64,000 nucleotides of DNA from Gammaproteobacteria bacterium (GCA_965215365.1 CBDCDS010000003.1:2336001-2400000), one strand, 5' to 3'; positions 4,711 through 56,695 are shown, counted from the stretch's first letter. Program-made: numbers and translations. The notes: a model not told the origin generated them from the sequence alone.

Positions 4711-4878
4711 ATATGTATTGAACCTGGACAAATCATTTGTCTTTGCTGAGGTATAAGGTAGAGTGTGCATGGGTCTTACCTGTGAAACCCATCCGGTGAT
4801 AGTCATTGATCTCGCAAGACATTACACAGACAAGGCTTTTTGATTCTTGGCCTTGCTAACGCGGGATTAGAGAATAAC

Positions 4879-5854
4879 ATGCTCGACTCAAGCATAAAAA
4901 TTGCTGATCAATACAGCCCGGATGAGCAAGCAGTACTTTTCCATGGCAACTGCCTGGACCTGCTGAAAGAGATACCGGAGCGTAGCGTCCAACTGGTTGT
5001 CACCTCTCCCCCTTATAACATCGGCAAGGAATACGAGAAGAAAATAAATATTGACAAGTACCTCAGCCAACAGGCCGAAGTAATTAAGGACTGTGTACGT
5101 GTTCTTTCCGATACGGGAAGTATTTGTTGGCAGGTAGGCAATTATGTCAACGATGGTTCAATCATTCCCTTAGATACAGTTCTGTATCCGATATTTACTG
5201 AACTTGATTTGGTCATGCGCAATAGAGTCATCTGGTATTTTGAGCATGGATTACACTGCACCAGACGGTTTTCCGGCCGCTATGAAACCATAATCTGGTT
5301 TACCAGAAAAACGAAGGAATTCGTGTTTAATCTCGACCCGGTCCGAGTTCCGCAGAAATATCCGGCCAAGAAATACTTCAAGGGACCTAAAGCCGGGCAA
5401 TATTCCTGCAACCCCCTCGGTAAAAATCCGGGGGACATCTGGGATATACCCAATGTCAAGAATAACCATATAGAGAAGACCGAGCATCCCTGCCAGTTTC
5501 CGGTAGGTCTCATCGAGCGGCTGGTCTTGTCGATGACCAACGAGGGAGATTGGGTGTTTGACCCTTTTCTGGGAACCGGCACATCGGTTATTGCCGCACT
5601 ACGCCACAAAAGAAGGGGGGGGCGGCGCTGAGACGGAAAAGAAATACGTCAGGATTGCAAAAGACAGGATACAGAATCAGATAGACGGCACCCTGCGAAC
5701 TCGGCCGATGAATAAACTCAAATATGATCCCGCCACGGGCAACAACAAATTGACCGTGCCGCCATGGGATACTACCGGCGAAGAGGCAATACAAGAGAGA
5801 TTGATGGAGCCCCGCGCAAAATACCATAACGATGAGGGGCCGTTTGCTGTTTAG
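4879..5854 (+). pseudogene. Site-specific DNA methyltransferase (beta class, N4-C, M.BglII/M.BstYI-like), frameshifted in a G8 run
   Basis: TSPPY, HPCQFP and DPFLGTGTS motifs. Frame breaks at G8 (5615-5622); the C-terminus GAETEKKY...LRTRPM continues in ORF 5558..5854. Confidence 0.85.
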
Positions 5855-6299
5855 TCCGATCGATATGAACAGGTCATTCAAAAAGCTCCTGGAAGATAAA
5901 GGATGGGCAGAAAGTCGCGTCAGCTATTGGGTGACAAAGGATGAGAAGTTGATCAGAAAGACACTCACCATGTCTCCGGAACAGCAAAAACAGGAAATTG
6001 AACGAACAGACTCTTCCCCGATATACAGCTACAACCAGACTGATTTTGTCAAAGACAGGGTGGCAATTGAGGTTCAATTCGGAAAATATTCCTTTGTTGC
6101 ATACGATTTATTTGTTAAACACCTTGCATTTTACGTGGGTGACAAAATTGATGTCGGTGTTGAAATTTTACCCATGAAACAACTGCAATCCCAAATGAGC
6201 TCCGGCGTGTCTTACTACGAAGGAGAGCTGTACAATGTTATTAGGCAGGGACGTGGGGTGCCGGCAGTGCCGCTGGTAATTGTGGGAATTGAAGATTAA
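5832..6299 (+). pseudogene. BglII/BstYI-family type II restriction endonuclease, N-terminally truncated
   Basis: SYNQTDFVKDRVAIEVQFGKYSFVAYDLFVKH and SSG.SYYEGELYNVIRQGRGVPAVPLV match BstYI from recall; ~50 N-terminal residues are absent. Confidence 0.85.
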
Positions 6300-6379: not shown

Positions 6380-6650
6380 CGCGGCGTGTACTGCCTGCGC
6401 TCTAACCGCACCGACTGGGACGAGGACACCCTCTGGCGCACCTACTTCATGCTCACCGAGGTCGAAGCTGTGTTCCGCGCACTGAAATCCGAGCTGGGCC
6501 TGCGCCCCATCTACCACCACACGCCCGTGCGCGCCGAAGGACACCTGTTCATCAGCGTCATCGCCTACCAACTGGTGCAGGTCATTCGCACCCGCCTGAA
6601 ACACACCGGCGAGCACGCCAACTGGACCACCCTGCGCCGCACCCTCGGCA
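6380..6650 (+). mobile_element. IS1634-family transposase C-terminal fragment
   Basis: GVYCLRSN...LW.TY..LTEVEAVFR.LKSELGLRPIYH..RAEGHLFISVIAY; no N-terminus. Confidence 0.8.
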
Positions 6651-6820
6651 GAGGAATGCAGTTCCCGCAAGCTCAGCCGGCAGGCCGGGCGCAGCAGACG
6701 AACTATAACCGAATGTGCCGGTTCAGGAGTCTTTGTCCTGGTAAGGATACTTATAGGCCAACCAGAGCAATACAATCGCTCCTATAAAAGTAGTTGCTCC
6801 AGCAGCCAGCAAAGCCATAT

Positions 6821-7009
6821 TCATCGCTTTTTCCTCATATTGCCAAGGGCTAACAAAAAAATGCCAACCAGTGCCAGCCAGATAGCCAACCAAGTGTTTC
6901 CTCCCTCAAGAACGCCGCTCAAAAAGCCGGCAGAGGTAACGATGATACCCAGCCGACGAATATCTTCCAGCACAGTCGGCACATAAAATTCAAAGTTTTC
7001 AAATGACAT
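6821..7009 (-). CDS. Small two-helix membrane protein (62 aa)
   Basis: MSFENF...LEDIRRLGIIV...LWLALVGIFLLALGNMRKKR; TGcTATACT extended -10 lies 9 nt upstream of the ATG. Confidence 0.55.
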   Translation of the reverse strand: MSFENFEFYVPTVLEDIRRLGIIVTSAGFLSGVLEGGNTWLAIWLALVGIFLLALGNMRKKR

Positions 7010-7042
7010 ATCGGTGACAGTATAGCACACGGCAATACTTGA

Positions 7043-7936
7043 GGGGTCGTTGACCCCCTTGCCATAGTTGGCGGAGAGAGAGGGATTACAAACTACCTCC
7101 CTGTAGTTTGCCCCTGCGGGGCCAGCTACGCTGTTCAAATTCGCTCCCGGCGAATTTGTCGAACCCGGGTGTTGATTATCGAGGGTTCGAATCCGTACTG
7201 CAACAACTACCACAAGGGGGGGTCGTTGACCCCCTTGCCATAGTTGGCGGAGAGAGAGGGATTACAAACTACCTCCCTGTAGTTTGCCCCTGCGGGGCCA
7301 GCTGCGCTGTTCAAATTCGCTCCCGGCGAATTTGTCGAACCCGGGTGTTGATTATCGAGGGTTCGAAGCCACACTCAACAACTATGGCAAGGGGGTCGTT
7401 GACCCCCTTGCCATAGTTGGCGGAGAGAGAGGGATTACAAACTACCTCCCTGTAGTTTGCCCCTGCGGGGCCAGCTGCGCTGTTCAAATTCGCTCCCGGC
7501 GAATTTGTCGAACCCGGGTGTTGATTATCGAGGGTTCGAAGCCACACTCAACAACTATGGCAAGGGGGTCGTTGACCCCCTTGCCATAGTTGGCGGAGAG
7601 AGAGGGATTACAAACTACCTCCCTGTAGTTTGCCCCTGCGGGGCCAGCTGCGCTGTTCAAATTCGCTCCCGGCGAATTTGTCGAACCCGGGTGTTGATTA
7701 TCGAGGGTTCGAAGCCACACTCAACAACTATGGCAAGGGGGTCGTTGACCCCCTTGCCATAGTTGGCGGAGAGAGAGGGATTACAAACTACCTCCCTGTA
7801 GTTTGCCCCTGCGGGGCCAGCTGCGCTGTTCAAATTCGCTCCCGGCGAATTTGTCGAACCCGGGTGTTGATTATCGAGGGTTCGAAGCCACACTCAACAA
7901 CTATGGCAAGGGGGTCGTTGACCCCCTTGCCATAGT
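7043..7936 (-). repeat. tRNA-linked tandem array (RtT-like), five units of 173-176 bp
   Basis: tRNA 3' 19-mer (TGGCGGAGAGAGAGGGATT on +) at 7069, 7245, 7418, 7591, 7764 plus the real tRNA at 7937; each unit carries the hairpin ACTATGGCAAGGGGGTC-GTT-GACCCCCTTGCCATAGT, degenerate in the distal copies. Confidence 0.95.
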
Positions 7937-8027
7937 TGGCGGAGAGAGAGGGATTCGAACCCTCGATACGCTATTAACGTATACACACTTTCCAGGCGTG
8001 CGCCTTCAGCCACTCGGCCATCTCTCC
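7937..8027 (-). tRNA. tRNA-Ser(GGA)
   Basis: GGAGAGATGGCCGAGTGGCTGAAGGCGCACGCCTGGAAAGTGTG...GGTTCGAATCCCTCTCTCTCCGCCA; long variable arm; encoded CCA. Confidence 0.97.
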
Positions 8028-8126
8028 GGTGCGGATTGACGCTATGATATGGGAGAAAGCCCCGGCACACAACTTCCGAAACTCTGAAACTCCGCATGGT
8101 GTCATGTCAGGGCTGTCAACTGCCGC

Positions 8127-9926
8127 TCATTGCATATTTGGAGTGAGTTGCAACTCTGCCAGCCGCGCGTACATGCCGGCGCCGGCGACCAGGCTGTCAT
8201 GGTCGCCGCTATCGACGATCCGGCCCTGGTCCATGACGATGATCCGGTCCACTTTTTTCACGGTGGCCAGACGGTGGGCGATGACGATGACTGTGCGGTT
8301 TGCCATCAATTCCTGTAACGCCTGTTGCAACAGGTTTTCGCTTTCGGCATCCAGCGCGCTGGTGGCCTCGTCCAGCAACAGCAACGGCGGGTCTTTCAAT
8401 ACCGCTCGGGCAATGGCGATGCGTTGTTGCTGGCCGCCGGACAGGCGCGCGCCTTTTTCTCCCAGGAACGTGTGGTAGCCGTTTGGCAGTTGCCGGATAA
8501 AATCGTCCGCATAAGCCGCCGTGGCCGCCCGGACTACTTCGGCATCCGTGGCATGCGGGCGACCGTAGCGAATGTTTTCCAATACGCTGTCGGCAAATAA
8601 CACCGTCTGTTGCGGCACGATGCCGACCTGCTGGCGCAGCGCGCGCAGGTCCAGCTCGCGTATATCGATGCCGGCCAGCCGGATTTGCCCCTCAACAGGA
8701 TCATAAAACCGCAGCAATAACTGGAACACCGTGCTCTTGCCGGCCCCGGACGGCCCCACCAGGGCCAGAGTCTCAGTCGGGCTGATAGCCAGAGATAAGC
8801 CGTCCAGCGCCCACTGCCCAGGGCGGGACGGGTAGCTGAAACTCACTCGCTCCAGTACCAGCGGGTGGTTGGCGCCGGCAGAAAACGGGCGCGGGGCATC
8901 GGGACTGGTGACGGCCGGGCGACTGTCGAGGATGTCCAGCAAGCGCCCCATGGCGCCGGCCGCCCGCTGCACCTCGCTCCAGACCTCCCCTATCGCAGTG
9001 GCACTGCCGGCCACCAGGGTGGCGTAAACCAGGAACTGCACCAGAGTACCGGCGCTGATGCTGCCGTCGATGACAGAGCGGGCGCCGCTCCACAGCACCA
9101 GCACGACGGCGCTGAATGAGCATAACACGACCAGGCCAGATAACAGCGACCCCACCGACAGACGCCGGCGCGCGGCGGCGAAGGAACGCTCTACCGCATC
9201 GTTAAAACGGCGCCCCTGCACAGCCTCAAGGGTGAAGGCCTGCACCACCTGTATGGCATTTAACACCTCCCCGGCAATACCGCTGGAATCGGCCACCCGA
9301 TCCTGGGTCTCCCGGGACAGCTTTCGCACCTTCCTGCCGTACACCAGAACCGGCAACACCACCAGCGGTAACAGCCCGAACAAAAGGATACTCAGCCGCG
9401 GGCTGGTGACGAGCAACATGACCAGACTGCCGCTCAGGATAAAGGCGCTACGCAAGGCCATGGACACCCCGGCCCCGATCACTGACTGCACCAGGGTAGT
9501 ATCCGTAGTCAACCGGGACAGCACTTCACCGGCTCGGGTCACCTCAAAAAAAGCCGCGTCCATGCGCAGTACGTGCCGGTAAACTGCGCTGCGGATGTCG
9601 GCGACTGCCCGCTCGCCAATCCACATCACCGTATAATAACGCGCCGCCGAGGACAGCGCATAGACCCCGGACAACAACAGCAGCGCCATGAAATAAATGT
9701 CTATGGATTGGCCGTTGGCATCGGAAAAACCGTAATCCACCACCAGCCTGATGGACACCGGCATAGCCAGCGCCGCCAGTGCTGCTACGGTCAGGCAGAT
9801 TAACGCAAACAACATTCTGCCGGTGTAAGGGCGCAGAAATGGCAACGCGCGCCGTAGTGGTTTGACCTGGGGCATGTAACGCAGACGGGTCCGATGAAAA
9901 AAGACAGACATTACCACAAACGGCAA
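8127..9926 (-). CDS. ABC transporter fused permease/ATPase (MsbA-related half transporter)
   Basis: 6-TM domain, GPSGAGKST, LSGGQQQR, LLLLDEATSALD; true start probably 9875-9911. Confidence 0.92.
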   Translation of the reverse strand: MPFVVMSVFFHRTRLRYMPQVKPLRRALPFLRPYTGRMLFALICLTVAALAALAMPVSIRLVVDYGFSDANGQSIDIYFMALLLLSGVYALSSAARYYTVMWIGERAVADIRSAVYRHVLRMDAAFFEVTRAGEVLSRLTTDTTLVQSVIGAGVSMALRSAFILSGSLVMLLVTSPRLSILLFGLLPLVVLPVLVYGRKVRKLSRETQDRVADSSGIAGEVLNAIQVVQAFTLEAVQGRRFNDAVERSFAAARRRLSVGSLLSGLVVLCSFSAVVLVLWSGARSVIDGSISAGTLVQFLVYATLVAGSATAIGEVWSEVQRAAGAMGRLLDILDSRPAVTSPDAPRPFSAGANHPLVLERVSFSYPSRPGQWALDGLSLAISPTETLALVGPSGAGKSTVFQLLLRFYDPVEGQIRLAGIDIRELDLRALRQQVGIVPQQTVLFADSVLENIRYGRPHATDAEVVRAATAAYADDFIRQLPNGYHTFLGEKGARLSGGQQQRIAIARAVLKDPPLLLLDEATSALDAESENLLQQALQELMANRTVIVIAHRLATVKKVDRIIVMDQGRIVDSGDHDSLVAGAGMYARLAELQLTPNMQ

Positions 9927-56392: not shown

Positions 56393-56695
56393 TAACCCGC
56401 ATATCTCACCAAGTCGTTTGTTGCCTTGTGAAACATAATTGCTCTCAATAAGTTATGGTAACCTCTAAACTCCCATGATCGGGGGTGCTGCACACCCCGA
56501 CAGTATGTAAATTTTGAAAATTTACATAGCAAAAATACCCTCCGTGGCATTTTATGATGCGTCCCATCCCCGGGACGCCCCCTGCGGGCATGTGCTTGTT
56601 CAACCATAGCTACCGCTATGCTCATCGTCGCCGGCACCCGCAGGCAGAACCAATCCGGCGCGATCTTCGCATCACTTGGTGAGATCTGCGGGTTA
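56393..56695. mobile_element. MITE-A with nested MITE-B (from 56457)
   Basis: TAACCCGCATATCTCACCAAG...CTTGGTGAGATCTGCGGGTTA; GGTAACCTCTAAAC follows AAGTTAT as at 2353. Confidence 0.78.

Follow-up and report, generated by a model that had tools for sequence, protein, structure and literature searches.

In Escherichia coli, tRNA-linked repeats (TLRs) number 22 at ten loci, with one to five units per locus, and their hallmark is that 18-19 bp of each unit reproduce the upstream tRNA or rRNA gene's 3' end (PMC8144298). This source, in the portions available, credits their description to Egan and Landy 1978 and to Rudd 1999, and gives no known function for them. Three of the TLRs, RrA, RrB and RrF, are found behind 5S rRNA, between the two terminators of rrnA, rrnB and rrnD. 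According to the same portions, they occur as forms of ~173 and ~115 nt with a lifetime of ~2.5 min and bind Hfq and CsrA in vitro with a KD of ~100 nM, CsrA binding being lost when three GGA are changed (PMC8144298). Here we describe five such units in a 64,000-nt stretch of the genome of a Gammaproteobacteria bacterium (GCA_965215365.1 CBDCDS010000003.1:2336001-2400000; hereafter the window), directly behind the gene for tRNA-Ser(GGA). This is a new array in the known TLR class, which was seen first behind E. coli tyrT. Each unit carries a 72-nt insert, designated E72, and the locus is very probably a TLR array with an rrB-type module. The genome (G000) comprises 2.73 Mb in 3 contigs, with 58% G+C and 45 tRNA genes.

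Anatomy of the array behind tRNA-Ser(GGA)

The single tRNA gene in the window is tRNA-Ser(GGA), and the array begins at the base right after its CCA (Table 1). Tandem Repeats Finder reports a repeat at 7043-7955 with a period of 173, 5.3 copies, 98% matches and a score of 1750. In a whole-genome search, units 1-4 are 100% identical and the distal unit shows 94% identity, which bears out an earlier note on this DNA, made by a model from the sequence alone, that had pointed to a five-unit array with four identical units and a diverged distal one. The 19-nt 3' end of the tRNA, AATCCCTCTCTCTCCGCCA, occurs six times in the window, once in the tRNA itself and once in each of the five units (shuffle mean 0.02, n=100), and the tail copy agrees with the upstream tRNA at 19/19 nt in 5/5 units. 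The traits by which TLRs are recognized, namely a position directly downstream of a stable-RNA gene, tail identity (19/19 nt here) and the number of units (five), are all present.

Read in the direction of the tRNA, each unit consists of a hairpin (H1), an 11-nt spacer, an inverted copy of part of the tRNA, a 10-nt spacer, the direct T-arm piece GGGTTCG, the 72-nt insert and the tRNA end from A58 to CCA. H1 has a 17-bp stem and a 7-nt loop, with the CA of the tRNA's CCA as the first bases of its 5' arm. The spacer behind it was considered as a decayed inverted copy of the acceptor strand, but 11 nt are too few for such a claim. In units 1-4 the inverted copy measures 15 nt (TTCGAACCCTCGATA, the complement of the tRNA's TATCGAGGGTTCGAA), and in the distal unit 18 nt (GGATTCGAACCCTCGATA, the complement of TATCGAGGGTTCGAATCC). 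GGGTTCG reaches G57, and the module splits the T loop between G57 and A58. All the parts listed in the earlier note are thus present (the 17-bp hairpin, the antisense segment of 15 or 18 nt, the insert of stacked hairpins, put there at ~70 nt, and the last 19 nt of the tRNA). RNA folding of unit 3 gives -80.4 kcal/mol (z = -6.19), and 0/200 shuffles fold as well. In the predicted fold, GGGTTCG pairs with the inverted copy over 8 bp and the unit is closed by only 4 pairs. A promoter-like TTGAGT-16-GATAAT is seen on the minus strand across the inverted tRNA piece at 7351-7378, 7524-7551, 7697-7724 and 7870-7897; it has 9/12 matches, represents one sequence copied four times in identical units, and is not relied on.

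An inflated unit number or a mis-assembled array is conceivable, since no independent contig spans the repeat. Against this, short-read contigs from two other studies enter the array from both unique flanks without any difference, the same architecture recurs at 8 loci of 5 relatives and at 58 listed loci of other taxa (see below), and the genome assembled into 3 contigs despite many near-identical copies of a 2.3-kb element. An assembly artefact is therefore exceedingly improbable. In the public runs, available as contigs, bins 7452-7752 are uncovered and the repeat-to-flank depth ratios vary between runs; these ratios are not copy numbers. Six RNA runs among them, none of this organism, contain 8-11% of the words, and none of these data are taken as evidence.

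The E72 module and the rRNA-linked TLRs of E. coli

A covariance model of the module (R1) matches E. coli K-12 in exactly three places, each with 53.7 bits and an E value of 2.1e-9. At rrnB, where the sequence was read, the module is located just after rrfB, within a split copy of the 5S 3' end. The three places are the genes rrA, rrB and rrF of PMC8144298, and E72 is homologous to their core. Across the class, with one genome per family, R1 finds the module in 68/151 genomes; two of these, G063 and G165, bear an unpublished flag, and nothing else is claimed from them.

R1 was built from 23 aligned copies, taken from 14 genomes, for which a fold of four helices with 25 pairs is predicted, 10 of the pairs being supported by compensatory changes. 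The loops of the first and last hairpins hold an invariant GGA in 23/23 aligned sequences, and the last-hairpin loop holds it in 125/141 distinct matches. In the flanks of 54 matches that were not pattern-selected, G stands on the left in 43/54, AA on the right in 38/54, and both (G^AA) in 31/54.

E72 is not confined to tRNA genes. The 36 genomic BLAST hits include two arrays outside the window that consist purely of the module, repeated head to tail every 72 bp, one of 6 copies (G000:C3:2120409-2120840; L013 1141-1572) and one of 11 (G000:C3:2323420-2324211; L012 1503-2294), and single copies also lie inside mosaics of other small palindromes. A relative, G006, has one free-standing E72 array of ~20 copies. 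Each copy in the free-standing arrays has two GGA loops. Of the two arrays in the genome studied here, one is preceded at ~60 bp by a promoter-like site and followed at ~80 bp by a terminator-like hairpin; neither kind of site is near the second array, and nothing is claimed from this. Within the window, a weak match to the module model (19.8 bits, E 0.004) is found at 56557-56625 on the minus strand, far from any tRNA.

Each array follows its own tRNA

For every tRNA gene of the genome, the sequence downstream was searched for repeats of that gene's tail and for its T-arm in inverted orientation. Arrays are found behind 3/3 tRNA-Ser genes (GGA, GCT and TGA) and behind 0/42 other tRNAs. The units behind tRNA-Ser(TGA) end in the tail of their own tRNA, AATCCCACCCTCTCCGCCA, and their inverted piece matches this tRNA over 17 nt. 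Their H1 differs in sequence from that of the window, while their insert is ~96% identical to the window's. The tRNA-derived parts are therefore local and the insert is common. Behind tRNA-Ser(GCT) there are one full and one truncated unit, with tRNA-Arg(ACG) further on. The csrA gene (G000:C3:11843-11998, minus strand; locus L104; 90 bits) lies directly upstream of tRNA-Ser(GCT), a gene order that also occurs in E. coli, and the adjacency is therefore given no weight. No tRNA-Ser(CGA) is present among the tRNA genes found in this genome. The relatives provide such a gene: in G004 (L023) and G009 (L024), the inverted piece of the tRNA-Ser(CGA) units matches its own tRNA (TACCGTGGGTTCGAA). By locus, the tRNA-matching sequence is CCCTCGATA in the GGA and GCT units, CCCACGAA in the TGA units and CCCACGGTA in the CGA units.

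The junction between loop and module occurs in 14/23 genomes of the genus, a reversed control pattern giving 0-1 matches per genome. Among 19 loci examined, 15 adjoin a tRNA-Ser gene, one (in G022) has an island-like stretch in between, and 3 (L043, L056 and L048) are chance pattern matches within coding regions and were dropped. In 5 relatives, the architecture of the window's array is repeated at another 8 loci, where 1-2 units are present. Comparison of unit numbers between relatives, as proposed in the earlier note, shows that they vary at tRNA-Ser(GGA): 5 in the genome studied here, 2 in G006, 1 in G005 and 1, truncated, in G012. The tRNA-Ser(CGA) genes of G004 and G009 have no encoded CCA and end in ..CCGTAA, an end that their units copy. 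GTAA is the end of both the tRNA and the inner unit in G004, where the outermost tail copy alone keeps CCA, with a different flank.

Mirror-image arrays stand upstream of tRNA-Ser(TGA) at L031, L032, L034, L037 and L053 (G002, G014, G019, G015 and G006). In their units, of 155-166 bp, the leader and tRNA bases 1-21 are rebuilt ahead of the module, which sits in the D loop, and ~12 more bases of the tRNA come after it, followed by a short fold-back. Further afield, judging by the flanks of 27 loci, the module interrupts the T loop of incomplete tRNA-Arg, -Gln, -Glu and -Ser copies and a D loop of tRNA-Ser, and is once in the opposite orientation. At L082 (G049), three units lie upstream of tRNA-Ser(CGA) and the module splits the anticodon loop (..GACTCG / AAAGC..).

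A pattern scan of one genome per species returned at least 118 stretches, all titled Gammaproteobacteria or Pseudomonadota. The counts for these wider loci rest on 80 loci fetched among the matches listed, 58 of which have an intact same-strand tRNA ending at most 200 nt upstream (Ser 24, Arg 12, Gln 8, Tyr 7, Glu 2, Lys 2, and Phe, Pro and Val 1 each). In 35/58 the module is followed by at least 12 nt that repeat the tail exactly. The longest exact cognate antisense match in the spacer averages 8.83 nt over the 58 listed loci, which are not phylogenetically independent; when tRNAs and loci are paired by shuffling, the mean is 6.93 nt (sd 0.16), and 0/2000 shuffles reach 8.83. The antisense segment thus co-varies with the cognate tRNA at other loci, as the earlier note would have it, and local tRNA templating is therefore supported at the DNA level. 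That note had spoken of active, tRNA-templated expansion. Templating is upheld by these data; for the word active, the evidence amounts to the identity of four units.

An alternative model assumes that the antisense segment acts on the tRNA, pairing with the tRNA-Ser T-arm in the primary transcript or in trans and thereby controlling its folding or maturation. Indeed, the perfect cognate complementarity of 15-18 nt exceeds the 8-bp pairing within the predicted unit fold, and the match follows the cognate tRNA from locus to locus. However, the inverted piece covers the 5' side of the T-arm, its 3' strand, or the very end of the tRNA with CCA, differing between the listed loci, and a copying by-product therefore fits better than one conserved target. 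In addition, the Rfam RtT consensus pairs its inverted piece with the unit's own tail. What speaks for antisense action is the complementarity itself, and such a role would be highly unlikely; nothing was found in support of the sequestration of the T-arm that the earlier note had considered.

The arrays could also be regarded as scars or decoys of integration, the 19-nt tails being att sites of integrases that use tRNA 3' ends and the units miniature integrated elements. Many integrases cross over in the T loop of tRNA genes, and the copied segment begins there. The arrangement in G004 looks as if an original end had been displaced, and a restriction-modification pair is located ~750 bp beyond the array. 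Yet there are 0 integrases among the seven neighbouring reading frames scanned, and no further tail copy in the 64-kb window with up to 3 mismatches allowed. Integration at a 3' end cannot account for the mirror arrays that rebuild the 5' end, where the D or the anticodon loop is split, and in E. coli it is a copied 5S rRNA end that this module interrupts. In G022 (L049), an AT-rich island-like stretch ends in a tRNA-Ser tail copy, directly followed by a unit without H1. This island is located between the tRNA and the unit, and therefore used the tRNA itself. Islands and TLR units share the same site, as this case illustrates, but an integrase origin of the units is very improbable, and the decoy attB role put forward in the earlier note found no support.

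Proposed origin of the units

The local templating of the tRNA-derived parts and the commonness of the insert can be accommodated in a model. In each unit, an inverted copy of part of the tRNA's 3' third precedes a direct copy whose T loop contains the module. E72 would lodge at G^AA in the loops of stable-RNA genes, and the tRNA at hand would supply the sequence for the rest of the unit, possibly when the template is switched by fold-back at a trailer hairpin. The growing strand would fold back at this hairpin, copy the tRNA tail and rejoin the template at GGTTCG before the module; in the model, both tRNA-derived parts therefore follow the local gene. The trailer's first 8 nt are mirrored further on in 23/58 listed loci. 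In 3/23 the mirror extends without a mismatch into the tRNA end, over 14-15 nt, and in 8 more it matches at 10-11/16 positions. The four identical proximal units would have arisen by recent unequal recombination or slippage between units, their identity being the reason for this proposal, and growth of the array is probably due to unequal recombination. A minimal GIY-YIG nuclease was considered as the agent and rejected: the sole match in the genome sits in a 615-aa frame, presumably UvrC.

The same facts are open to a reading in which E72 is selfish or neutral DNA, a mobile palindrome of the REP/BIME kind that inserts at G^AA, with the array as a by-product of recombination, its RNA without a role, and cells surviving only where an intact tRNA copy was kept or rebuilt. 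This would explain the dispersal of E72 (the 36 hits, with 6 and 11 of the 72-bp copies in pure arrays and singles within small-hairpin mosaics), its presence in either orientation and at sites other than tRNAs as well as in T and D loops and one anticodon loop, the G^AA flanks of 31/54 non-pattern-selected matches, and the differences in presence and unit number between close relatives. The genome also encodes one protein with a Y1_Tnp (RAYT-type) match (33.5 bits). However, this match is unlinked to any E72 copy, no transposase adjoins any of the copies examined, and conservation of the fold and of GGA in the loops extends over the whole class. The homologue in E. coli binds CsrA through its GGA, according to the available parts of PMC8144298. 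The selfish reading is compatible with the origin proposed here and differs from it in function alone. There it is a serious alternative, although on balance we consider it the less likely one.

Possible function

The function that we propose for the array follows the E. coli precedent. By homology, transcripts started at the tRNA-Ser promoter would continue into the array through H1, a hairpin that lacks a T run. A T-rich terminator-like site was not found between 6700 and 8300, except for one ~165 bp beyond the array. The enzymes that mature tRNA 3' ends would cut at each copied tail, producing CCA-ended RNAs of ~173 nt. The release of such CCA-ended small RNAs, one of the roles suggested in the earlier note, is plausible from the precedents of RtT and RrB (~173 nt). 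Each RNA would expose GGA in two hairpin loops and may thus bind CsrA, perhaps also Hfq, like RrB in vitro. With five units on a stable-RNA promoter, the pool of CsrA-binding RNA would be tied to the rate of tRNA transcription.

The steps of this chain do not carry the same weight. It is reasonably probable that the array is transcribed and processed. Taken loosely, as TLR identity together with expression as trailer RNAs, the whole chain has a slightly better than even chance of being correct. A real CsrA-related role is more tentative and falls somewhat short of that mark.

Several observations weigh against the proposal. Being a very stable 17-bp hairpin, H1 could stop most transcripts. Deletion or overexpression of rrA, rrB and rrF changes CsrA-regulated traits only modestly, and the 19 tRNA-linked E. 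coli TLRs score below 0.01 in a predictor of CsrA binders, as reported in the available parts of PMC8144298. The one tRNA-linked E. coli core compared here, the RtT insert, differs from E72 (R1 at most 12.1 bits). For the organism under study, we infer transcription, processing and CsrA binding alike. The count of GGA in the first hairpin (131/141) is biased, as the search pattern demanded GGA, although GGA is also present there in all 23 aligned sequences, which were chosen without the pattern. The occurrence of E72 outside tRNA loci, in palindrome mosaics and 72-bp arrays, is the pattern of a selfish repeat. Finally, the data agree only in part with an origin by fold-back, exact mirrors of at least 14 nt being limited to 3/23 loci.

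A bolder version of the proposal holds that E72 is a portable CsrA-binding unit which TLRs hang on stable-RNA promoters, and that units arise by fold-back templating. We regard it as speculative and rather unlikely. If E72 were such a unit, titration of CsrA by the five-unit array, and by the units that follow tRNA-Ser(GCT), would keep pace with transcription of the tRNA, and the free-standing 72-bp arrays would be the counterpart of CsrB in this lineage. If units were built by fold-back, this would explain a puzzle open since 1978.

The E. coli TLRs have been in the literature since that year without an accepted function or origin. The loci described here provide a natural data set in which the same module stands behind four tRNA-Ser genes and the tRNA-derived parts follow each local gene, together with mirror versions on the 5' side, free-standing arrays of the module and a link to the TLR type partnered with CsrA. 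Two questions thereby become testable, namely whether tRNA trailers feed a pool of CsrA-binding RNA, and how a non-coding module can rebuild the gene in which it is inserted. Should neither idea prove right, this is an ordinary repeat that was amplified recently.

Features of the locus and its surroundings

Table 1. Coordinates of the tRNA-Ser(GGA) gene and of the parts of its TLR array, counted from the first nucleotide of the window
Feature	Position	Strand	Method or score
tRNA-Ser(GGA), CCA encoded	7937..8027	-	ARAGORN; Rfam tRNA model, 57.8 bits
TLR unit 1, 173 bp, same sequence as units 2-4	7764..7936	-	
TLR unit 2, 173 bp	7591..7763	-	
TLR unit 3, 173 bp, unit used for RNA folding	7418..7590	-	
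TLR unit 4, 173 bp	7245..7417	-	
TLR unit 5, distal, 176 bp, 94% identity to the others	7069..7244	-	
Truncated sixth H1 copy, 28 nt including CA of the last CCA; end of array	7043..7070	-	
Hairpin H1, unit 1	7898..7938	-	
Hairpin H1, further copies	7725-7765, 7552-7592, 7379-7419; diverged copy 7204-7246	-	
Inverted copy of tRNA TATCGAGGGTTCGAA, 15 nt, unit 1	7872..7886	-	
Inverted copy, further 15-nt copies	7699-7713, 7526-7540, 7353-7367	-	
Inverted copy, distal unit, 18 nt	7177..7194	-	
GGGTTCG piece	7855..7861; also 7682-7688, 7509-7515, 7336-7342, 7160-7166	-	
E72 module, unit 1	7783..7854	-	Covariance model R1, 97.9 bits
E72 module, unit 2	7610..7681	-	R1, 97.9 bits
E72 module, unit 3	7437..7508	-	R1, 97.9 bits
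E72 module, unit 4	7264..7335	-	R1, 97.9 bits
E72 module, unit 5, one base different	7088..7159	-	R1, 98.6 bits
Copy of the last 19 nt of the tRNA (A58 to A76), unit 1	7764..7782	-	
Last 19 nt of the tRNA, further copies	7591-7609, 7418-7436, 7245-7263, 7069-7087	-	

Past the distal end of the array, genes for a DNA methylase (N6_N4_Mtase; 4840-5631, plus strand) and a BglII-like restriction endonuclease (5832-6299, plus strand) form the pair mentioned above. Insertion sequences and small mosaic repeats abound in the genome. One element of ~2.28 kb occurs at least 15 times in nearly the same form (99.7-100% identity), for example at C3:650843-653125 and C1:66948-69230.

Comparison with known systems

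REP and BIME elements are palindromic mosaics of enterobacteria. E72 resembles them in being dispersed, in lying within mosaics of small palindromes and in forming head-to-tail arrays. Unlike them, it is longer (72 nt with four helices), is found class-wide and occupies a fixed position in the loops of stable-RNA gene copies. With the CsrA-sequestering RNAs of the CsrB/RsmZ type, the array shares repeated hairpins with GGA in the loop, of which it would have 10, but it is a tRNA trailer and not a free-standing gene. Genome-wide searches for CsrB, RsmZ and RsmY (RF00018, RF00166 and RF00195) gave best E values of 0.14, 0.16 and 0.0024, all below the cut-offs.

The RtT RNA of E. coli (rttR; 178-bp repeats at tyrT-tyrV; RF00391) shares with the array its outer architecture, its tandem units and its CCA-ended product. 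The RtT unit at tyrT-tyrV-rttR consists of a piece complementary to A59-C68, the half of the T loop up to G57, a hairpin insert and the end from A58 to CCA, and the T-loop copies are thus broken before A58 in both systems. They differ in the inverted piece, which in RtT complements A59-C68 and closes the unit with its own tail, whereas that of the window complements the 5' side of the T-arm. A relationship by descent between E72 and the RtT insert was considered and dropped, the best R1 score being 12.1 bits (E 0.013) with an alignment that is not sensible. RF00391 has no match at E<=1 in window positions 6500-8600, in the whole genome or at six related loci, while the positive control gave 4 matches of 133-137 bits at E. 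coli tyrT (gathering threshold 45 bits). The label RtT-like in the earlier note therefore holds for the architecture and the TLR class, and not for membership of the Rfam RtT family.

Like the E. coli TLRs as a whole, the array stands directly behind a stable-RNA gene, its units end in 18-19 nt of the 3' end of that gene, and their number falls within the range of 1-5. It differs in belonging to another genus and in following tRNA-Ser. For the inverted tRNA piece, the exact position of the insert in the loop and the free-standing module, no TLR description was found in the available parts of PMC8144298.

RrA, RrB and RrF are the closest relatives of the module. They are unlike the array in following 5S rRNA, in consisting of a single unit and in having two clear terminators, as opposed to a tRNA, five units and no T-rich terminator here; binding of Hfq and CsrA is shown, in the parts of PMC8144298 at hand, for these E. 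coli RNAs only. On the other hand, the order of the hairpins, the GGA in the loops and the splitting by the module of a copy of the upstream RNA's 3' end are common to both, and the long form of RrB, given there as ~173 nt, compares with a unit of 173 bp in the window.

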